Positions 5,779 to 57,630 of a DNA stretch of 64,000 bases are shown here, piece by piece. The DNA lies in contig CAVXNJ010000002.1 in assembly GCA_963763135.1 (NCBI GenBank), positions 81,562-145,561 of the forward strand, in the 5' to 3' direction. A program made the position numbers and the translations under genes. Origin of the DNA: an uncultured Acidimicrobiales bacterium. GTDB taxonomy: Bacteria > Actinomycetota > Acidimicrobiia > Acidimicrobiales > JANYDT01. Every line of letters begins with the position of its first letter. The stretch's first letter is position 1. Below the pieces are notes generated by a model, which had not been told where the DNA came from, did no database searches, and worked only from the letters and a program-made list of their open reading frames with translations.

Positions 5779-6528
5779 ATGTATACCGACCTGAATACGG
5801 TTCTCGGAAACACCTCGGCGACCTCGCCCACGGGGTCGGTAGGGGGCGCGGCCGCGGGATCGGGTCGGCTCGGTGACGACGCGTACTCGCTGTTGAAGAC
5901 CCGAATTCTGCGGGGCGAGTTCCCCCTGAACGTGCGGCTCGTCGAGACCCGACTGGCCAAAGAACTCGGCCTCTCCCGCACCCCGGTGCGCGAGGCGCTG
6001 GCCCGCTTGGCGGCGGAATCGCTGCTGAAGTCCCATCCCGACGGAGGATTTCAGCCGCGGATTCCCGACACGATCGCCATTCGGGAACTCTACGAAGTGC
6101 GGGCGGCGCTGGAGCACCAGGCCCTGCAGCGGCCGGGGCGCAACGGCACCCAGCACGACCGGACGATTCTTGAACCACTCCGCGATTTCTGGCTCAGCCT
6201 GCTGAACGGGAAACAACCCGAGCCCTCGCCTGAGTTCGTGCTGTTGGACGAATCGTTCCACGTCACCCTCGCCCTGTCGGCGGGTAACCGGGCGACGGCC
6301 GAGATGCTGACCCGGGTCAACGAGCGGATCCGCATCATCCGCATGCAGGACTTCCTCGATGAGACCCGCATCCGATTGACGATCGAGGAGCACCTGTCGA
6401 TCGTCACCGACGTACTCGACGGGAATGTGCTCGCCGCGGAGATGGCGTTCGTGGCGCACCTCGCCGAGTCCATGGCCTTCGTGGCCGAACGCGCGGCAGG
6501 CGGCGATCGCCCGCATGGTGATTGGGGG
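5779..6528 (+). CDS. GntR-family (FadR/FCD-type) transcriptional regulator module; no stop codon, reads in frame into the ABC ATPase
   Basis: The wHTH region is [30 protein letters not shown]. It is followed by an FCD-like helical domain ending about [15 protein letters not shown]. The ORF track shows 5779..7440 as one open frame. Confidence 0.8.
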
Positions 6529-8141
6529 ATGAACATGAACGGACTTCCTGATGCATCGCAACTGCACACATCGCGACCAGAGCCATCGCGACCAGAGGCA
6601 TCGCGACCACCGCTGCTGAAAGCCCGGGCCATCCGCAAAGTCTTCGGACCCGTGCTGGCCAACGACAACGTCGACCTCACCCTGTTGCACGGCGAGGTGC
6701 ACGCCGTTCTGGGCGAGAACGGTGCAGGGAAGTCGACGCTCATGAAGGTGCTGTTCGGCCTGTACCCCGCCGATGGCGGAACGATCGAAGTGGAAGGTCG
6801 AGCCGTCGAGATGGCGAGTCCGGCCATCGCCCGTGAGAACGGGATAGGCATGGTGTTCCAGGATCTCCGGCTCGTGCCGGCGCTGACGGTTGTGGAGAAC
6901 ATCGGGCTTTCGCTGCTCGACCGAGGTCTTCGTTTCGACCGGAAATCGCTGTCCAAACAGATCGTCGAAGCGGCCGAGCAGTTCGGGCTGGCGGCCAACC
7001 CGGCGGCGACGGTGCGGGAGCTGTCGATCGGCGAACGTCAGCGCGTCGAAATACTACGTGTGCTTATGACTGGTGCGAAGCTCGTAATCCTCGACGAACC
7101 GACGAGCGTTCTTGCTCCCCAGGAGGTCGACCAGCTCTTCGCCGGTCTCCGCTCGCTGAAGGATCAGGGCCTGGCCGTGGTCGTCATCACCCACAAGCTC
7201 GCTGAGTCACGCTCGATCGCCGACCGGGTGACGGTGCTGCGCGGGGGACGCCTGATCGTCGACGGGGCCGATCCGTCGACAATGAACAACGACGAGTTGA
7301 TCGAGGCGATGGTCGGCCGATCCGTTCAGGGATTGCCGGCCGACCGGGTGCCAACGCGCGAAGGACCGGCCCGCAGCCCTGTCACTGCGACCGGATCTCC
7401 ATCCACGATCGCCGTCGGGGCAACCTCCTCGAGGACGTGACATTTCAGGTGGAGGCCGGGGAGATGGTCGGCGTCGCGGGAGTGGCCGGTAACGGTCAGC
7501 TTCCCCTCTACGAGGTCGCCCTGGGTCTTGTCGCTCCGACCACCGGGACCCTGTCGATCGGTGGCCAACTGATCGCCAAGCCCACCCCGCAGGCGGTCCT
7601 GGCGGCCGGCGCCGTGGGTGTTCCCGAGGATCCGATCCGTGATGCTGTCGTTCCCGGACTCTCGGTCCACGAGCACGTCGCGCTCGACGCCCGACGACTG
7701 TTTCGCAAGGGTTTGAACATCGACTGGGGCAAGGTTCGGCACCACTATTCCGAGGGCAACCGCTTCAGCGAGTTGCGCGGCGCCCACGGCGACCGGCGGC
7801 TCGAATCACTCTCGGGCGGCAACATCCAACGGGTCATGTTGATACGCGCGCTTAGTGCATCGCATGCTTCGCTCGTGGTGGCGGCGTATCCGAGTCGCGG
7901 CCTTGACATCGCGACCACGCGCCGAACCCAGGAACTCCTCCTGGAAAAACGCGCCGGTGGGGCCGGCGTTCTGTTGATCTCCGAAGACCTCGACGAGCTG
8001 TTTGAGCTGTGCGACCGCATCGCCGTGTTGCACGCGGGTCGGTTGGTCGGCGTGGTCGATCCGAAGGTGTCGGACCGCTACGAAGTCGGCCGCATGATGC
8101 TCGATGCCCACGAACCGGTTGCGGCTGGCGGTGCGAAATGA
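6529..8141 (+). pseudogene. BMP-type (nucleoside/sugar class) ABC transporter ATP-binding protein with two NBDs, split by a frameshift near 7385-7400
   Basis: NBD1 has [21 protein letters not shown] and [12 protein letters not shown]2 (ORF 7437..8141) has GVAGVAGNGQ, LSGGNIQRV and LISEDLDEL. Translating upstream of 7437 in the NBD2 frame gives [23 protein letters not shown], the normal strand preceding Walker A. The two halves are therefore one gene in two frames. Confidence 0.8.
6569..6610 (+). repeat. 15-bp in-frame tandem repeat (2.8 copies) forming the regulator-ATPase linker
   Basis: CATCGCGACCAGAGC, CATCGCGACCAGAGG and CATCGCGACCAC, encoding [10 protein letters not shown] and SRPP. Confidence 0.9.
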
Positions 8142-9231: not shown

Positions 9232-10149
9232 ATGCTGATGCTTACGGAAGTGCTCACCGGAGGGGTCCGGGGAGGAACCTCGATTCTGTACGCCGCACTC
9301 GGTGAGTCGGTGTCGGAACGCTCGGGTGTGGTCTATCTCGGAACCGAAGGCTCGATGCTCATGGGCGCGCTGGCCGGGTACGCCGTGGCCTCCGAAACCG
9401 GCCAGGTGTGGTTCGGTGTCTTGGCCGGTGCCGCCGCCGGGGGAGCGCTCGCCGCGGTCCACGCGTATCTCGTGCTGAGCCGCGGCGCGAACCAGCTCGC
9501 GACCGGCCTGGTGGTGCTGTTTCTCGGGCTCGGCCTGACGTCGCTGTTCGGTGCGAACTACGTGCAGGCCCTGGCTCCGTCGTTTCGGCCCGTTGCTATA
9601 CCGGGCCTGTCGTCGATTCCGTTTGTCGGCACGGTGCTCTTCAAACAGGACCCCCTGGTCTACCTGTCGTTTGTCCTCGTGCCCGCGCTGTGGTGGTTCA
9701 TAAGTCGAAGTCGATGGGGCGTGCTGCTGCGCGCCGCCGGTGAACGCTCGGAAGTTCTCACCGCCACCGGCCACGGTGTGCTCCGTATCCAGTACGCGGC
9801 CGTCGTCGTGTGTGGCATGTTCGCCGGAATCGGTGGCGTTCACCTTTCGACCGCCTACACGAAGTCGTGGTTCGAGAACATGGCGCAGGGCCGGGGATTT
9901 GTCGCCGTCGCCGTTGTGATGTTCGCCGCCCGTCAACCGTTCAAAGTTGCCGCCGGCGCGTACCTTTTCGGTGCTGCCCTTGCGCTGTCTCCTGCTCTGC
10001 AGGCCCGCGGCTACGGCATCAACCAGTTTGCGCTCGATGCGGTCCCGTATCTGGTGACCCTCGGGGTGCTGATCGTGCTCGGGAAGCGGCGAACCGCCGA
10101 TCTTCCGGAAGGCCTGTCGAAGGTCTTCGAAGCGACGCCCACCACCTGA
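9232..10149 (+). CDS. BMP-type ABC transporter permease 2 (intact)
   Basis: 305 aa, polytopic. Typical motifs are LGESVSERSGVVYLGTEGSMLMGA and GFVAVAVVMFAARQP. Confidence 0.85.
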   Translation: MLMLTEVLTGGVRGGTSILYAALGESVSERSGVVYLGTEGSMLMGALAGYAVASETGQVWFGVLAGAAAGGALAAVHAYLVLSRGANQLATGLVVLFLGLGLTSLFGANYVQALAPSFRPVAIPGLSSIPFVGTVLFKQDPLVYLSFVLVPALWWFISRSRWGVLLRAAGERSEVLTATGHGVLRIQYAAVVVCGMFAGIGGVHLSTAYTKSWFENMAQGRGFVAVAVVMFAARQPFKVAAGAYLFGAALALSPALQARGYGINQFALDAVPYLVTLGVLIVLGKRRTADLPEGLSKVFEATPTT

Positions 10150-10160
10150 GCGCCCAAGAA

Positions 10161-10220
10161 CCCACAGCAACACAACCCCCACAGCAACACAACCCCACAG
10201 CCACACAGCAACACACACAG
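10161..10220 (+). repeat. C/A-rich 17-bp tandem repeat in the leader of the BMP lipoprotein gene
   Basis: CCCACAGCAACACAACC x2, then the degenerate CCACAGCCACACAGCAACACACACAG. Shares GCAACACAACC with the leader of the other SBP gene at 4296-4312. Confidence 0.85.
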
Positions 10221-10256
10221 TAATAAGCACACGTATTAAACCTTCTGGAGGATAAC

Positions 10257-11547
10257 TTGCGATCACGACTTCTCATTCCCGCGGCTTTGGCCGCGCTCTC
10301 GATCCTGGCGGTGGGGTGTTCGAGCGATAAAGCCGCCGACACCACCGTCGCGGCGGAGACCACTGCCGCAGCGGCCGAAACCACGGCTGCTGCGACCGAC
10401 ACGACCGCCGCGGCAGCCACGGAAACGACTGCAGCTGCTGCCACGGAAACGACCGTCGCCGCCGCAACCGAGACCACCGCTGCGGCCGCCGCCACAGGGA
10501 CCGGCCCGGGTGTCGGATCGAAGAAGGTCGGGTTCATCTTCGTCGGCCCGAAGGACGACTACGGATACAACCAGGCGGCGTACGCCGGCAGCCAGGCCGT
10601 GAAGGCGGCGTTCCCCGATCTTGAGGTGTTGACCGCCGAGAACGTGCCGGAAGACGACAACGCGACCCGCATCATGGAGAAGATGATCTCCGATGGCGCG
10701 AAGATCATCTTCGCCACGTCGTACGGTCACCTGGATCCGGCTCTGAAGGTTGCTGCTGCGCACCCTGACGTGGCCGTGGTCCAACAGGGCAACTTCATCA
10801 AGGACGCCGTTCCGGCCAACGCTGGCACCTACTTCGGTACCGTGTACGAGCCGGTGTATCTCGCGGGCATCGCCGCCGGCAAGGCCACCAAGAGCAACAA
10901 GCTCGGTTACGTCTATGCGTTCCCGATTCCGCAGACCATTGCGAACATCAACGCCTTCCAGCTCGGGGCCGCAGTCGGTGAACCCGGCGGTCGAGACGCT
11001 AGTCGTCAACACCTCGAACTGGTGCGACCCGGCCAAGCAGGCCGAGGCCGCGAAGAGCCTGTTCGCCCAGGGCGTCGACGTCATCACCCAGCACCAGGAC
11101 TGCACCGCCACCATCACCAAGGCGGCGGAAGAAGCGGGCAAGATGGTCGTCGGCTACCACGCCGACGCCTCGTCGCTGGCCCCGAAGGGCTGGGTCGCCG
11201 GTTCCGAATGGAAGTGGGACGACCTGTACATCGACATCGTGAAGACGGCTCTTGCCGGTAACTTCACCGGTTCGAAGTACAACGCCAACTTCCGGGTCGG
11301 TTACAAAGACGGTGGTAACCCGTTCGTCCAGTCGAAGTACGGCGCGATGATCGATGATGCGACGAAGGCCAAGATCGAAGAGGCCAAGACGCTGATTTCG
11401 AGCCCCGAAGGTTCCCCGTTCACGGGACCGGTCATGGCTCAGGATGGCTCGGAGATGTTCCCGGCCGGTGTGCCCGACTACGCCACGGTCGAGTCGAAGA
11501 ACACCGTGTTCGTCAAGGGCGTCATCGGAGAAATTCCGAAGGGCTGA
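10257..11547 (+). pseudogene. BMP-family (PnrA/Med-like) ABC substrate-binding lipoprotein, +1 frameshift near 10972
   Basis: TTG start after a GGAGGA Shine-Dalgarno, lipobox LSILAVGCSS, Thr/Ala-rich linker, then VGFIFVGPKDDYGYNQAAY. The N-terminal frame ends at INAFQLGAA. The continuation SVNPAVETLVVNTSNWCDPAKQAEAAKSLFAQGVDVITQHQDC to the true C-terminus is in the 10750 frame. Confidence 0.8.
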
Positions 11548-20028: not shown

Positions 20029-21276
20029 TTATGCAGGTGTGCGCAATCGTCTGCCCGGTTGGATGAGTTCACCAGTGTCGCGTTGCACGATGTCAACCAG
20101 GCCGTCGGGTGCGCGTTCCACCACGAGCTCGTTCTCGTGGGTATGCGGGTGATGCGGGCGACATAGCGGCACCATCTTGTCGACATCGGTTTCGCCGTGG
20201 TCGAGGTGGACTTCGTTGATATGGTGAATTTGGCATTGGTCAGCCCATACCTGGCATTCGGGGTACACACAGCGTTGGTCACGGGCGATGATTGCGAGTC
20301 GTTGAACCGCTGTAGGTTCATGTCGGGCGCGTCCGAATTTGAGGACTTCGCCATGCATGTTCTCGAACAGGTAGTAGAGCTCGGAGCGGGTTTGATCGAA
20401 CAGCGACTCGGTGACTGGGATCGGGCCTTTGCCGATCAGGGTGGCCTTCCATTGGTCCACGTTGAATACGATGATCACCGCGGGTTTCGCGGTTTGCACT
20501 ACCGTTCCCGCTACCGGGGTTGAACCGCCAACCACCCGATCATCATCGCTCGCCTGTTCGGTGGGATTGCTGTCGGTGGCGGTGTCGTAGAACGGTCGGA
20601 CACCAGCGATATCGAGTAATGCGTCGGCCATCCGTTGATCGTGACTGTCACCACCGTGCCCACCCGCGGTTCGGGCGCGTTCGGGGTGATCCTTGCGCCA
20701 TTTGGCATTCACCAACGTAGCCAGCACTTCGCGGAAATGTTTCCCGTCGACCGGTGGCAACAACCCGCGAAACGCCAGCATGCCGTCGGGGCCGTCTCCA
20801 AACCGGAGATAGCGCTGCGCTCGCTGACGTTTCGCCGAGTCATCCCCGTGCTCGGCCGCTAGCCGGAACGATTCGACCGTTACCCTGAACTCTTCCGGTG
20901 ATTGCACCACTGCAACATCCAACAGGTCCTCTGCGCCAGCCATAGCGATGACTCGTTCCAACGCGGCCAGATGTTCGGGCGAAACCACACCCCGGCCGAG
21001 CAGTTCACGGGCTCGAGCGAAATTGTCACACGTCACTGCTACCTTGCTTCGTTGAAGCGCTTCCCCCGCCGACACTCCACACGCCCGAGCAATCGCAGTC
21101 GTTTTGTCTCGCGTCTCCGGCATTCCTGCGATCAACCCGGCCATTGCTGCGTGCGCCTCACGCACGATGCGTTCCAGCTCGGCCAAGCCCGCCATGCGCT
21201 CAACCTGCGTGAATCCACTGGCGTCCATCAACGGGACGTGCACGGCGGCCCACAACGCGATTCCGATCACTTCCAT
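20029..21276 (-). CDS. DUF222 / HNH endonuclease (13E12-repeat-like family)
   Basis: 415 aa. The C-terminus has CQIHHINEVHLDHGETDVDKMVPLCRPHHPHTHE (HNH motif). The long helical N-terminal domain is typical of actinobacterial DUF222 proteins. Confidence 0.85.
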   Translation of the reverse strand: MEVIGIALWAAVHVPLMDASGFTQVERMAGLAELERIVREAHAAMAGLIAGMPETRDKTTAIARACGVSAGEALQRSKVAVTCDNFARARELLGRGVVSPEHLAALERVIAMAGAEDLLDVAVVQSPEEFRVTVESFRLAAEHGDDSAKRQRAQRYLRFGDGPDGMLAFRGLLPPVDGKHFREVLATLVNAKWRKDHPERARTAGGHGGDSHDQRMADALLDIAGVRPFYDTATDSNPTEQASDDDRVVGGSTPVAGTVVQTAKPAVIIVFNVDQWKATLIGKGPIPVTESLFDQTRSELYYLFENMHGEVLKFGRARHEPTAVQRLAIIARDQRCVYPECQVWADQCQIHHINEVHLDHGETDVDKMVPLCRPHHPHTHENELVVERAPDGLVDIVQRDTGELIQPGRRLRTPA

Positions 21277-22440: not shown

Positions 22441-22890
22441 ATGGGGATGTGGGCCGCTTCGGCATTTGACAACGACACCGCAATGGATTGGGCGAGCGGT
22501 CTGAGCGCCCGTCCAGACGAGCCCTTTGGCAAACTGGAAGCAGCATTTCGTGCGGTCGCCGAGGCCGACACGCTCGCGGACCAAGACGCCATCTTCCAGT
22601 GCGTGGGAGCGGCGGCGGCTCTCCTGCACAGCCTTGGTATCTCGACCGCCAGAACTGTCCATGAGGTCGAAACCTGGGCGAAGAACCTGCACGTCCCGAC
22701 ACCCGAAATGCTCCTTCCACTTGGGGTCGCTGCCATGCGAAAGGTCAGCGCAGACCCGGGCGTCGTCTCGAACACCATCGCTGCGCCGCGTGACGTGCTC
22801 CTCCTGGCTCGGCCTATTGGTCAAACTCGAATCGCAATTGTCCGGAGCAGCTCACCCCGCCGCCTCCGTCGATCGGTCAACGATCGATAG
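22441..22890 (+). CDS. DUF4259-family protein
   Basis: The N-terminal hallmark is MGMWAASAFDNDTAMDW. 149 aa. Confidence 0.6.
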   Translation: MGMWAASAFDNDTAMDWASGLSARPDEPFGKLEAAFRAVAEADTLADQDAIFQCVGAAAALLHSLGISTARTVHEVETWAKNLHVPTPEMLLPLGVAAMRKVSADPGVVSNTIAAPRDVLLLARPIGQTRIAIVRSSSPRRLRRSVNDR

Positions 22891-23033
22891 GTCAACCGAT
22901 GATCGAAAAGTCACGCCTGAACCGGCAACTCCGAAGCCGCGACGGCCAAGCGCAACAGAACGACTGATCGGCGGGTGGATGCGTTTGAAGACCGATCCTG
23001 AGTGCGTGGCCTATTGCGTGGCCGAAGCCCGAG

Positions 23034-23357
23034 TTGGTGGTCTCACCCTTATACCGTTTCGTTCCGAACAGGTCTCCGGTCGCTCGGAAGTACGCGCTTG
23101 CGGCGCCTTGGCAACCTCTGAACCTAGATCCTCGAGACGTGCGGAAATACTTCGCCGTAGATGCCAACCTCACGACTGTGGTCGTAGAACTGAACTACTG
23201 GCATAGCTTTCGCGTGTGGTCAGGCACCGTGCCGAAGACATTCTTCGGGTGTGTCGACGGCAAAGTGCGGACGCGCCGGCCATCAAACGCAGTCGTGTGG
23301 GAGAACGGAAACACAGCATCTTCGTACCCAACGCCGGATTGGTGGAAAGCCAATTGA
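23034..23357 (+). CDS. hypothetical protein (weak call)
   Basis: 107-aa ORF in a lower-GC patch. Third-position G+C is elevated only in its C-terminal half. No recognisable motif. The opposite strand also yields protein-like fragments, so this may be gene debris. Confidence 0.25.
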   Translation: MVVSPLYRFVPNRSPVARKYALAAPWQPLNLDPRDVRKYFAVDANLTTVVVELNYWHSFRVWSGTVPKTFFGCVDGKVRTRRPSNAVVWENGNTASSYPTPDWWKAN

Positions 23358-23377
23358 CGCACGGCGAAACGGAGACC

Positions 23378-23885
23378 GGCTACATGAACGTGGGGCTGAC
23401 GAACGTGTGGCCGTAGATGCTCCGCTGTGACGTCTACGGCTACATGAACGTGGGGTTGGCGATCGTGTGGCCGTGGATGCTCCGCTGTGACGTGTACGGC
23501 TACATGAACGTGGGGTTGGCGATCGTGTGGCCGTAGATGCTCTGCTGTGACGTCTACGGCTACATGAATGTGGGGTTGCTGATCGTGTGGCCGTAGGTGC
23601 TCCGCTGTGACGTCTACGGCTACATGAACGTGGGGGTTGGCGATCGTGTGGCGGTAGATGCTCTGCTGTGACGTCTACGGCTACGTGAACGTGGGGTTGG
23701 CGATCGTGTGGCCGTAGATGCTCCGCTGTGACGTCTACGGCTACGTGAACGTGGGGTTGGCGATCATGTGGCCGTAGATGCCTCCGTGACGACATCTACG
23801 GCTACGTGAACGTGGGGGTTGGCGATCGTGTGGCCGTAGGTGCTCGGTGACGACGTTTTCGGCTACATGAACGAGGGGCGGACCG
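23378..23885 (+). repeat. 60/61-bp tandem repeat, about 8.4 copies (MIRU-like minisatellite)
   Basis: The unit is GGCTACATGAACGTGGGGTTGGCGATCGTGTGGCCGTAGATGCTCCGCTGTGACGTCTAC. Copies start at 23378, 23438, 23498, 23558, 23618, 23679, 23739 and 23800, with a partial copy at 23861. Each unit has the hairpin GCCGTAGA-N15-TCTACGGC. Confidence 0.95.
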
Positions 23886-23924
23886 CTGGAGCGAAGAAGA
23901 ATCTGGAACAAATTCCGGGCTACC

Positions 23925-23951
23925 TGTCGATTCCGGGGTACAACGTTCGTT
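23925..23951 (+). promoter_or_regulatory. candidate ECF-type promoter for the DGPF/sigma operon
   Basis: TGTCGA, 17 nt, CGTT about 55 nt upstream of the ATG at 24004. A GGAAC-N16-GTCGA alternative overlaps at 23905-23930. Confidence 0.3.
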
Positions 23952-24003
23952 GTGGTGTCGAGGCCGGCAATCGTGCGGGTCGCACCAACCAAGGAGATCT
24001 GAA

Positions 24004-24363
24004 ATGAGCCAGTACCTGTTGTCAGTCCACGGCAGTGACGAGTCCGTTGCGGCCGTCGATCCGTCCACCATGCAGGGGATGTTCGAGGCGGTTGAAGCGT
24101 TCAACGAAGAGGTGCGCCAGGCCGGTGCATGGGTGTACGCGAACGGCCTGATGTCTGCCAGCACCGCCACAGTCGTCGACGCCACCGGGGGCGAAACCGT
24201 GTTCACCGATGGCCCGTACCTGGAGACCAAGGAGCACATCGGCGGCTTTTGGATCATCGACGTCGCCGACCTCGACGCCGCCCTCGCCTGGGCCGCCAAA
24301 GGTTCCGCGGCTTGCCAGGGTCCGGTCGAGGTCCGTCCGTTCCAGCCCACCGACGGCGCCTGA
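24004..24363 (+). CDS. YCII-related (DGPF) domain protein
   Basis: 119 aa with an AAGGAG Shine-Dalgarno. Contains the motif TDGPYLETKEHIGGFWIIDV. Confidence 0.85.
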   Translation: MSQYLLSVHGSDESVAAVDPSTMQGMFEAVEAFNEEVRQAGAWVYANGLMSASTATVVDATGGETVFTDGPYLETKEHIGGFWIIDVADLDAALAWAAKGSAACQGPVEVRPFQPTDGA

Positions 24364-24371
24364 CGCAAACC

Positions 24372-25776
24372 GTGCCAGATTCGCTCGCTGCCTCCGCCAT
24401 CGGTCGCATCTTCCGGGAGGAATCCGGACGCTCGATCGCCACACTGGTCCGCACCTTCGGCGACATTGACATCGCCGAAGAAGCGGTCCAGGAGGCGTTC
24501 GTCGAAGCGACCAGGCGCTGGCCCGAGTCCGGCCTTCCCCCGAACCCCGGGGCATGGATCACAACGACGGCCCGCAACCGCGCCATCGACCGGATTCGCC
24601 GTGAATCGACCCGCCATGAACGACACACCGCCGCTGCCCGACTCGACCCGGGCGAGGAACAAGCGACGCCGGTCGGCCCCGTGAACGACGACCGACTTCG
24701 GCTGATCTTCACCTGTTGCCATCCGGCTTTGGCCACGACCGCACAGGTCGCGCTGACACTTCGGCTCCTCGGGGGACTCGAAACCGGCGAAATTGCCCGA
24801 GCGTTTCTGGTGCCGGAGTCCACGATGGCCCAACGCATCGTGCGGGCGAAGCACAAGATCAAGGCGAACAACATTCCGTACCGGATTCCCGCCGATCACG
24901 AGCTGCCCGATCGACTCAAGCCGGTCCTTACCGTCGTCTACCTGATCTTCAACGAAGGCTACGCAGCCACGGGCGGCATCGAGCTTGTCCGTGACGACCT
25001 TTGTGCCGAAGCGATCCGACTCGGACGCCTGCTCGCGGAACTGATGCCCGACGAACCCGAGGTGAACGGGCTCCTCGCGCTCGATGCTGTTGATCGCATC
25101 ACGGCGTCCCGCACGGATCGGTCCGAACGGGGAGATCGTGTTGCTAGCCGATCAGGATCGCACCCGGTGGGATCGTGCGCTGATCGACGAGGGCCAAGCA
25201 CTGGTGCGGGCGTCGCTGCGGCGCAACATGCCGGGTCCGTATCAGGTTCAGGCGGCGATCAATGCGGTTCACAGTGACGCGGCAAGTGCATCCGACACTG
25301 ACTGGAACCAAGTGCTCGCGCTCTACGACCTCCTCTACCAGTTGTCGCCGAACGCAGTGGTGGCCCTGAACCGTGCTGTTGTGCTGGCCGAAGTCGAGGG
25401 CACGTCCGTCGCTTTGACCGCGGTCGACGCACTCGACCTCGACCGCTACCATCCGTTTCACGCAACGCGGGGAGAACTTCTCAGCCGCCTCGGCCGCCAC
25501 GCCGATGCCGCAACCGCCTTCCGACGCGCACTCGCCTTGACCACCAACGAGACCGAACAGGGCTTCTACACGGCGGCCGTCGGCCGGGCCATCGCGGCGT
25601 CGGCCGGCACGCGGCCGACGCCGACGCCGATGCCGACGCCATCGCGGCCGCCGACGCCATCGCCATCGCCGCCGACGCCAACCCCAACGCGGCCGCCATC
25701 GCCGCCGACCCCGACCCCAACTAACCGGGCGACAACCCGGTCGTTTCCTGTCCGATCTACCTCTCCATCAAGATAG
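24372..25776 (+). pseudogene. ECF sigma factor with a long TPR-like C-terminal extension (ECF42-like); apparent 1-nt insertion near 25083
   Basis: Sigma regions 2 and 4 are present (AWITTTARNRAIDRIRRE and GEIARAFLVPESTMAQRIVRAKHKI). The first frame ends at EPEVNGLLAL. The continuation MLLIASRRPARIGPNGEIVLLADQDRTRWDR...GPYQVQAAINAVH is in the +1 frame (ORF 25084..25776). Deleting G25083 restores GLLALMLLIA. Confidence 0.75.
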
Positions 25777-42937: not shown

Positions 42938-42947
42938 TTTCAGATCC

Positions 42948-43111
42948 GTCTACCGACGGTGACAGCCGTCAATGTGATCGTTCACTGTGCTTGAGCCCCC
43001 GGGTTCCGGGTCACGTCTACCGACGGTGACAGCCGTCAATGTGATCGTTCACTGTGCTTGAGCCCGGTTCCGGGTCACGTCTACCGACGGTGCAGCCGTC
43101 AGATCGTTCAC
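42948..43111. repeat. 64-67-bp tandem repeat (2.5 copies) comprising the 3' end of tag plus its 3' flank
   Basis: Copy A is 42948-43014, copy B 43015-43078, and copy C (attached to the gene, with 4-nt and 1-nt deletions) 43079-43111. Confidence 0.9.
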
Positions 43112-43697: not shown

Positions 43698-43990
43698 GGT
43701 CGCTCCGGAGTCGTTTTTGTTTCCGGTGGGTAGGTTTTCGGCTCCGGAGCGGTGTTGTCCGCGGCGGGTTTGGTCGCTCCGGAGTCGCCGGGAGTCGTTT
43801 CGTCGCTTGGGGGTCGACTTTTCGGCTCCGGAGCGGTGTTGTCGGTGGTGGGTTTGGCCGGTCTAGGTCGCTCTGGAGTCGTTTCGTCGCTTGGGGGTCG
43901 ACTTTTCGGCTCCGGAGCGGTGTTGTCCGCGGCGGGCTTGGTCGCTCCGGAGTCGCCGGGAGTCGCCGGGCGCCGACCCTTGGGAAACCG
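43698..43990. repeat. tandem repeat with alternating 74- and 94-bp spacing (168-bp super-unit, about 1.8 copies) between tag and dapA
   Basis: GGTCGCTC(C/T)GGAG anchors lie at 43698, 43772, 43866 and 43940. TTTTCGGCTCCGGAGCGGTGTTGTC recurs three times. Confidence 0.85.
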
Positions 43991-57134: not shown

Positions 57135-57161
57135 CAGAGGTTCTGTTCCGTCCCGCTAAAG

Positions 57162-57207
57162 ACGGGCGGCTCGTGCGTGAAAACGCACGAGCCGCCCGTT
57201 TGCTTTT
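57162..57207 (+). terminator. intrinsic terminator after icd
   Basis: A perfect 17-bp stem, ACGGGCGGCTCGTGCGT / ACGCACGAGCCGCCCGT, with a GAAA loop, followed by TTGCTTTT. Confidence 0.85.
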
Positions 57208-57228
57208 AGCACCCCGCTCCTGGTGCTC

Positions 57229-57630
57229 CGCGAGGTTTGGATGTTTGTTGCCGCTGGGCGGGCAGATTCATCCAAACGTGTGGTGGTGTGTGCTGCGGGT
57301 TCGCGAGGTTTGGATGTTTGTTGCCGCTGGGCGGGAAGATTCATCCAAACGTTGGGTTGGGATCGGCGGGTGCTCGTTTGTGCTCGCCGAGCGAGCAGTT
57401 GTGTCCGTACGTTGAAGCGGGCTGCCGAAGGTCCGCGAGGTTTGGATGTTTGTTACCGCTACGCGGGCAGATTCATCCAAACGTGTGGTGGTGTGTGCTG
57501 CGGGTTCGCGAGGTTTGGATGTTTGTTACCGCTACGCGGGCAGATTCATCCAAACGTGTGCGGGTGGGAGCTGCTTGTTCGCGAGGTTTGGATGTTTGTA
57601 ACCGCTGGGCGGGCAGATTCATCCAAACGT
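57229..57630. repeat. five copies of a 51-bp hairpin-containing repeat at 73-bp spacing (one 132-bp gap)
   Basis: CGCGAGGTTTGGATGTTTGT(T/A)(G/A)CCGCT(GG/AC)GCGGG(C/A)AGATTCATCCAAACGT occurs at 57229, 57302, 57434, 57507 and 57580. The outer stem is GTTTGGATG/CATCCAAAC and the inner stem CCGC/GCGG. Confidence 0.95.

Follow-up and report, generated by a model that had tools for sequence, protein, structure and literature searches.

A tandem array ahead of a YCII-sigma operon

The DNA analysed here is a 64,000-nucleotide stretch from an uncultured Acidimicrobiales bacterium (contig CAVXNJ010000002.1 of GenBank assembly GCA_963763135.1, positions 81,562 to 145,561), called the window below, and our subject is a tandem array of 60-bp units that stands ahead of an operon for a YCII-family protein and an ECF42-type sigma factor. 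The first gene of the operon, at 24004-24363 on the + strand, encodes a YCII (DGPF-type) protein of 119 amino acids (Pfam PF03795, E = 7e-15) and is preceded by a Shine-Dalgarno-like AGGAGA at 23992-23997, 6 nt ahead of its ATG. The sigma gene follows on the same strand at 24372-25776. It has a GTG start and a frameshift near 25083, and Pfam recognizes regions 2 and 4, DUF6596 and TPR in its product, which bears out the DGPF/ECF42-like operon named in the first-pass annotation of this DNA.

The array itself is a minisatellite at 23378-23880 on the + strand and consists of eight full 60/61-bp units and a degenerate partial one, with the consensus GGCTACATGAACGTGGGGTTGGCGATCGTGTGGCCGTAGATGCTCCGCTGTGACGTCTAC. 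Tandem Repeats Finder reports it at 23377-23878 with period 60, 8.3 copies, 90% matches and a score of 777, by far the highest of any tandem array in the window, and a 40-mer from the unit has five matches, compared to 0 expected from shuffled sequence. The units begin with GGCTAC at 23378, 23438, 23498, 23558, 23618, 23679, 23739 and 23800; five are 60 bp long, and the three that start at 23618, 23739 and 23800 are 61 bp long. The last unit is a degenerate remnant of 19-20 nt (GGCTACATGAACGAGGGGC at 23861-23879), and the start and end of the array both carry GGCTACATGAACG.GGGG, a direct repeat of ~19 nt. Divergence is greatest in the first and the last two units, and unit subfamilies are present, which would reflect successive duplications. 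In base composition the array is G+T-rich on the + strand (GC skew +0.24, AT skew -0.27). The window overall has essentially no skew, so this richness is local, and replication skew is excluded as its source.

The surroundings of the array are a 1.1-kb stretch without recognizable genes, from the end of the upstream gene at 22890 to the YCII ATG at 24004. The array ends ~124 nt before that ATG, close to the ~120 nt given at first pass, where the head-to-tail 60/61-bp units had also been described correctly, and ~13 nt before the conserved A/T-rich block of the promoter, which is intact. A contig assembled independently from short reads (L001, Logan ERR12037365) begins within unit 8 and matches the window with 100% identity over its 925 bp. 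Because this contig is identical and begins within the repeats, we take the array not to be an artefact of assembly.

Two hairpins recur in every unit. The first, H1, lies at 23378-23412 in unit 1, where GGCUACAUGAACG pairs with CGAUCGUGUGGCC (12 pairs including two U-G wobbles, and a 9-nt loop); it is stable only as + strand RNA, with 97.9% of its cells paired over the eight units. The second, H2, at 23410-23440 in unit 1, pairs GCCGUAGAUG with CGUCUACGGC (10 pairs, one wobble, an 11-nt loop) and is the hairpin GCCGTAGA-N15-TCTACGGC already noticed at first pass. H1 and H2 have 3 nt in common at each junction, which lets the array fold into an unbroken series of stems. Predicted RNA folding is markedly strand-asymmetric. 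The region 23360-24010 (651 nt) folds to -331.6 kcal/mol on the + strand (z -10.9) and to -204.8 kcal/mol on the - strand (z -3.2), and the array only (23378-23860) to -266.3 (z -10.9) and -144.9 kcal/mol (z -4.1), respectively. The same holds for one consensus unit (-28.3 versus -15.8 kcal/mol) and for a unit dimer (-68.7 versus -40.7 kcal/mol). As DNA the consensus dimer folds to -27.6 kcal/mol on the + strand and -22.1 kcal/mol on the - strand, so both strands should be able to form hairpins that promote slippage.

Standard pairs make up 97.4% of stem cells over the eight units; shifting the 3' partners by 1-3 columns lowers this to 52% or less. Among the variants that alter one side of a stem, eight keep pairing and four break it; the former are all transitions and the latter all transversions. 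No compensatory change on both sides of a stem pair occurs among the eight units. No hairpin is followed by a T-run, and there are 0 canonical terminator-like sites in 22800-24200. In Rfam, the array gives only chance matches to microRNA precursors (at most 30 bits against thresholds of 67-110), and nothing in the 64-kb window reaches a gathering score.

The units also carry short open reading frames (ORFs). The 10-codon mini-ORF proposed earlier, ATG AAC GTG GGG TTG GCG ATC GTG TGG CCG TAG, is present, with a GTG start in units 6-8. Translated in the frame GGC TAC ATG AAC, the unit reads MLRCDVYGYMNVGLAIVWP-stop, and the TAG is directly followed by ATG or GTG in seven of the eight units. The frame that begins at 23861 is open to a TGA at 24005, which overlaps the YCII ATG. 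No peptide similar to the unit-continuous frame is encoded elsewhere in the window, and the spurious ORF through the array has no similar protein in a collection of 5.8 billion clusters. A coding repeat on the - strand (an ORF of 170 amino acids at 23283-23795) was considered and rejected, as this ORF has a third-position G+C of 0.42, a change of frame inside the array and no homologue. Derivation from an upstream gene's 3' end was likewise set aside, since neither the ORF at 23034-23357 nor the unit-continuous frame has a homologue.

A candidate ECF42-type promoter

A protein scan of metagenome contigs for YCII yielded 80 further loci, and we compared the 160 nt upstream of their YCII genes. 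At ~60 related loci, the motif TGTCGA(T/A)(T/C)C...cGTTCGT(A/G) is found 75-80 nt upstream of the YCII gene, and of 82 matches to a loose regular expression, 62 have 15 nt between the TGTCGN hexamer and TTCGT. In the window, the candidate promoter occupies 23925-23950 on the + strand, with TGTCGA as the -35 element (23925-23930), a 15-nt spacer, and TTCGT as the -10 element (23946-23950, within CGTTCGT at 23944-23950). Immediately upstream, at 23893-23916, is an A/T-rich block, GAAGAAGAATCTGGAACAAATTCC, which resembles an UP element and may act as one; it is conserved upstream of the -35 element in the closest relatives.

A position weight matrix was built from 59 distinct promoter instances and used to scan both strands of the whole window. 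The median score of the training sites themselves is 32.7 bits (range 15 to 42), and the unique site at 23925 reaches +30.1 bits. No other site exceeds 10 bits in 64 kb, and 15 positions elsewhere in the window score above 0. A caveat is that the regular expression that gathered the instances itself prescribes some positions of the core, and the invariance of the core is therefore partly by construction; a looser expression left the dominant motif and the spacing unchanged.

Published target promoters of the Sinorhizobium meliloti ECF42 factor RpoE10 read ATGTCGGATCGG...GCGTCA and CTGTCGGCAGG...CCTTCGTCC (PMC6180224). The site at 23925-23950 matches this TGTCG(A/G)...TCGT type, and it lies at the usual distance from a YCII gene that is followed by a TPR-bearing ECF sigma gene. 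The unique ECF promoter that had been suggested at 23925-23951 thus finds support in both its score and its recurrence at ~60 related loci, and we regard 23925-23950 as a well-supported candidate for a genuine and deeply conserved ECF42-type promoter.

Downstream of the -10 element, a leader stem-loop is predicted at 23953-23987 (+). Relatives have a hairpin in the same place with different stem sequences. In 39 of 63 YCII loci a (G/A)TGAG motif occurs 7 nt after the -10 element. The stem-loop that comes next in the architecture shared by the ~60 loci has a loop of 3-5 nt. Its stem sequence varies from locus to locus, and the mean folding energy is -16.2 kcal/mol compared to -12.4 kcal/mol for shuffled sequences. 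RNAalifold returned no consensus for the leader hairpin on a MAFFT alignment. The stem-loop may be a conserved 5'-leader hairpin of ECF42-controlled YCII mRNAs.

Nature of the array

The unit is confined to one locus in everything that was searched. Further copies, which the first-pass annotation had thought worth looking for, are absent from the window and from ~350 kb of related loci by an nhmmer profile, and viral contigs, plasmids and phages gave no match. In 185,579 species-representative genomes, an 18-mer of the unit has 19 single matches in unrelated phyla, which we estimate to be about the number expected by chance in 596 Gb. An interspersed family within the window was also considered and rejected, as there is no other copy and the three other arrays found there are unrelated.

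Nor is an array seen at the corresponding position in relatives. The closest sigma homologues with an organism name are 71-79% identical and come from Ilumatobacteraceae and from Acidimicrobiales metagenome-assembled genomes; closer matches are 83-92% identical. At the closest loci, the YCII-sigma pair and the promoter are kept, the neighbours are different, and no array occurs upstream of YCII in the sequence covered. In particular, L021 (sigma identity 87%) has ~112 bp upstream of YCII, L022 (86%) ~115 bp and L105 (79%) ~141 bp, all without an array, and L104 (83%) has 425 bp of non-repetitive, unique sequence. The contig of the closest locus, L023 (92%), ends 23 nt upstream of the promoter block, and this relative might also have a repeat near its promoter. 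The complete genome of Aquihabitans sp. G128 (L106) contains two YCII-sigma modules with no long-period repeat within 21 kb; they lie at 6062-7665 (-) and 9645-11224 (+), divergent and within ~5 kb. Since this genome has two, paralogous modules appear to be common in the group, and the non-syntenic relatives of the window operon may therefore be paralogues rather than orthologues. Across 323 kb of related loci, Tandem Repeats Finder reports no array with a period of at least 25 and at least 2.5 copies; in the window it gives 11 rows with a period of at least 25 and at least 2.3 copies.

[quoted passage not shown] Both consist of intergenic head-to-tail units of 40-100 bp (here period 60, 8.3 copies) in a high-G+C actinobacterium, with internal G+C-rich inverted repeats, and both are missing from the homologous site in relatives. 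They may also be alike in small unit ORFs that are oriented with the flanking genes, the last of which ends on the downstream start codon. However, MIRUs are interspersed over ~40-50 related loci, whereas the 60-bp unit occurs at one locus and is unrelated to the units of the other arrays in the window. The chain of mini-ORFs is broken here by the 61-bp units and the loss of one stop codon, and the host is acidimicrobial, neither Mycobacterium nor a member of the Corynebacteriales in which MIRUs are known. Of the three hypotheses put forward at first pass, the MIRU-like VNTR thus comes nearest in anatomy, but membership in an interspersed family found no support within the sequence searched.

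The repetitive extragenic palindromic sequences and bacterial interspersed mosaic elements (REP/BIME) of enterobacteria and pseudomonads are ~21-65 bp long and are dispersed in hundreds of copies, whose orientation often alternates within a cluster. The array resembles them in being extragenic and palindromic and in forming stable mRNA stem-loops, and REP clusters between genes can stabilize upstream mRNA. It differs in that its unique 60-bp unit forms a single array, in which every copy points the same way. A CRISPR array was rejected as a candidate, as the units abut head to tail and there are no spacers. The bacterial minisatellites used in multiple-locus VNTR analysis (MLVA) share with the array a period of tens of base pairs, few copies, degenerate edges, an intergenic position and a presumed origin by slippage. 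From these it differs in nothing essential, although its two-hairpin structure, strand-asymmetric G-U pairing and codon-like periodicity are unusual.

An attractive alternative at first sight is that the array is a variable-number promoter array or a sigma decoy, in which each unit would initiate transcription from ECF42-like -35 and -10 elements or would titrate the sigma factor. The array directly adjoins the true promoter, and TGTGAC-N17-CGTG, which had been noted earlier and is indeed present across the junctions of units 1-6, recurs at six junctions with the outer geometry of TGTCGA-N17-CGTT. However, the best score in any unit on the 59-instance matrix is -13 to -18 bits, compared to +30.1 bits for the true site, and the TGTGAC-N17-CGTG sites score -15 to -17.5 bits, below the 15 chance positions above 0 in the window. 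With ECF42 promoters the repeat units have in common no more than the T-G-T of the -35 and the C-G-T of the -10 element, and they are wrong at the C and G of TGTCGA and at the TT of TTCGT, all invariant in the 59 instances; the spacer of the in-unit TGAAC-N14/15-CGTG is 2-3 nt below the norm for ECF promoters. No sigma-70-like promoter was found in the units or the region around them. The first-pass annotation saw a similarity of the last partial unit to the promoter region, but it does not exceed chance: a local alignment of the unit with 23880-24003 gives a score of 16, which 20-31% of control segments, shuffled or real, attain as well. The origin of the array by duplication of promoter-proximal DNA, suggested from this similarity, is accordingly not supported. 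We conclude that the repeats are almost certainly neither a promoter array nor decoys, and that this attractive reading should be corrected. The chance that the array is a spurious tandem expansion of a long-read assembly is likewise very slight. The nearby sigma gene has a 1-nt frameshift that could be a sequencing error, and the copy number of the array rests on one assembly, but unit 8, the partial unit and the 860 bp that follow all recur in L001 without a mismatch. Moreover, L001 breaks inside the array, as a real repeat would cause, and the units bear distinct, structured variants.

Since it is not a promoter array, the array is most likely an ordinary locus-specific bacterial minisatellite. 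We propose, with a probability of about 0.6, that it is a lineage-specific intergenic minisatellite of the VNTR type, near-neutral and at most a structured spacer. Several observations weigh against this proposal. In the frame GGC TAC ATG AAC, the G+C content of the unit by codon phase is 10/20, 7/20 and 19/20 (permutation P ~1e-4), although this P is overstated in that third positions pair with third positions in both hairpins, which about halves the number of independent observations. The unit may be fossil coding DNA. All six transitions in Watson-Crick stem pairs (6/6) lead to G-U on the + strand, which is A-C on the - strand (P ~0.016 if both directions are equally likely), and the + strand RNA folds far better than the - strand (z -10.9 versus -3.2). 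The loops offer only three transitions for comparison (Fisher P ~0.08). The G-U-keeping substitutions are suggestive of a constraint on the + strand RNA, and only suggestive because they are confounded with strand-biased mutation and come from eight recently duplicated copies; the strand-asymmetric folding and the G-U-keeping pairing are an oddity of the array. Furthermore, the search of the source genome for dispersed copies spans 64 kb only, and the copy number, variation of which is the hallmark of a VNTR, comes from one assembly, the sole other record, L001, breaking inside the array. The absence in relatives is biased as well, as short-read assemblies break at such arrays: L001 begins within this array, and the end of L023 lies 23 nt upstream of the promoter block.

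Two further explanations take up these points. In one, which takes in the insulator of stacked hairpins suggested at first pass, the stacked G-U-rich hairpins are an RNA-level element, REP/BIME-like or a set of tandem terminators, that is transcribed on the + strand from the upstream genes and shields the 3' end of their mRNA and/or blocks read-through, thereby insulating the autoregulated ECF42 promoter. This would account for the strand asymmetry of folding in the unit, the dimer and the whole array, for the 97.4% stem pairing, and for the pattern in which all eight one-sided transitions keep a standard pair and the four transversions break it. It would also fit the three of three consensus wobble pairs that are G-U on the + strand, a G+T richness that is local to the array in a window without skew, and the position of the array, as the + strand is the sense strand for the gene sets on both sides. 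However, the missing T-runs mean that there is no canonical intrinsic terminator, no pair is changed on both sides, and the eight units, being recent copies of one another, owe most of their pairing to descent. The same asymmetry would arise from mutation with a strand bias (C>T and A>G on the non-template strand), the loops provide just three transitions for comparison, and relatives do without any such element. Moreover, the nearest recognizable upstream gene (DUF4259) ends at 22890, 487 bp before the array, and the ORF between them has no homologues. We therefore consider an RNA-level element unlikely, though not far-fetched. In the other explanation, the array is a MIRU-like chain of translated 19-codon mini-ORFs (ATG CTC CGC ... 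TGG CCG TAG) linked by TAGATG, in which the ATGA of the last ORF overlaps the YCII start and couples translation across the spacer. The codon-phase pattern, the stop-start adjacency in seven of eight units, the continuity of the unit 1 frame with an upstream ORF of 66 codons, and the frame from 23861 that is open to a TGA overlapping the YCII ATG would all be expected from it, and the ends of MIRU ORFs likewise overlap adjacent genes (PMC3184786). Against this, the three 61-bp units shift the frame and break the chain twice, unit 2 has no stop codon, no Shine-Dalgarno-like sequence is seen ahead of either start, and units often differ from one another in ways that change an amino acid. A search among billions of proteins gave no homologue for the translated frame, for the upstream ORFs or for the antisense ORF, the permutation P is overstated by third-position pairing, and an open 48-codon frame ending in ATGA has an estimated ~5% chance of occurring by accident. 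Translated mini-ORFs accordingly strike us as improbable.

Returning to the minisatellite reading, the array most likely arose from a 60-bp segment bounded by the ~19-nt direct repeat (GGCTACATGAACG.GGGG) that multiplied in head-to-tail fashion. The mechanism would be slippage during replication, or else unequal recombination, aided by the two hairpins that each unit can form in single-stranded DNA. Its effect would be that of a 0.5-kb structured spacer ahead of an intact promoter. Should RNA polymerase enter the array from the upstream genes, which run in the same direction, the + transcript would fold into a G-U-rich hairpin chain of about -266 kcal/mol, which could hinder read-through or 3' exonucleases. 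We consider the effect of the array to be neutral or nearly so, with no sequence-specific binding of the sigma factor. A bolder interpretation would make the array a selected, transcribed MIRU/REP-like module of Acidimicrobiia, in which a hairpin chain stabilized by G-U pairs on the + strand, possibly with coupled mini-ORFs, insulates or tunes the ECF42 autoregulatory promoter and copy number serves as an evolvable dial; this is a speculative proposal that we regard as quite unlikely.

Flanking genes, other arrays and significance

The stretch between the DUF4259 gene and the array (22891-23377) has a G+C content of 57-58%, compared to 64%, and is probably non-coding or decayed DNA. Its sole sizeable ORF, at 23034-23357 (107 amino acids), has no Pfam match and only two spurious multi-stretch matches in 1.84 billion representatives. 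Exact-protein look-ups with the DUF4259 protein and this orphan ORF, made for a left-flank comparison of copy number, returned no record. Further upstream, ~2 kb from the array, a DUF222-family protein of 415 amino acids is encoded on the - strand at 20029-21276, and it is followed by a GNAT acetyltransferase gene and then by the DUF4259 gene. DUF222-type proteins are often annotated as HNH endonucleases in actinobacteria.

On the other side of the array, the frameshift in the sigma gene is a 1-nt insertion at 25070-25095 (...GCG CTC G ATG CTG...) within DUF6596. Sigma homologues at 79-92% identity are intact, with 411-421 amino acids, and L001 stops short of the frameshift position; the gene could be a true pseudogene, or the insertion could be an error of sequencing. 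At 25610-25719, the 3' end of the gene encodes a Pro/Thr-rich low-complexity tail (TRPTPTPMPTPSRPPTPSPSPPTPTPT...) of short imperfect tandem repeats. Most of this tail appears to be extra, because the repaired 409-amino-acid query lacks it and the intact homologues have only 411-421 amino acids.

The window contains three other long-period arrays. One, of 73 bp x 5.7 at 57229-57630, lies between a convergent isocitrate/isopropylmalate dehydrogenase gene and rsgA; its units are G+T-rich on the + strand and each has a GTTTGGATG...CATCCAAAC hairpin, and a canonical terminator hairpin with a T-run stands directly before it at ~57156-57210. The other two flank a methyladenine glycosylase gene. That of 67 bp x 2.4 at 42947-43101 is at the 3' end of this gene (- strand), next to a convergent + strand ORF without a Pfam match, and that of 84 bp x 2.8 at 43735-43965 is in the divergent promoter region between it and a DHDPS-family (dapA-like) gene. 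The units of all four arrays are unrelated in sequence to each other, and three of them combine G+T richness on the + strand with strong structure. Four long-period intergenic arrays per 64 kb is a high density. Because the arrays occupy promoter-proximal, convergent and divergent contexts, their formation points to a general tendency of the genome rather than to a function tied to the sigma promoter, and the formation of hairpin-bearing minisatellites looks like a general property of this genome.

Taken together, the analysis pins down the promoter architecture of the operon as an upstream A/T-rich block, TGTCGA-N15-TTCGT and a leader hairpin. If selection lies behind the strand-asymmetric pairing of the array, this would exemplify a structured RNA spacer at work beside an alternative-sigma promoter, and if the array is indeed a selected module, the other G+T-rich hairpin minisatellites would be independent instances of the same strategy. 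Should the density of arrays hold genome-wide, the arrays could serve as markers for strain typing, and this lineage would be well suited to the study of how hairpin-bearing minisatellites originate in bacteria.

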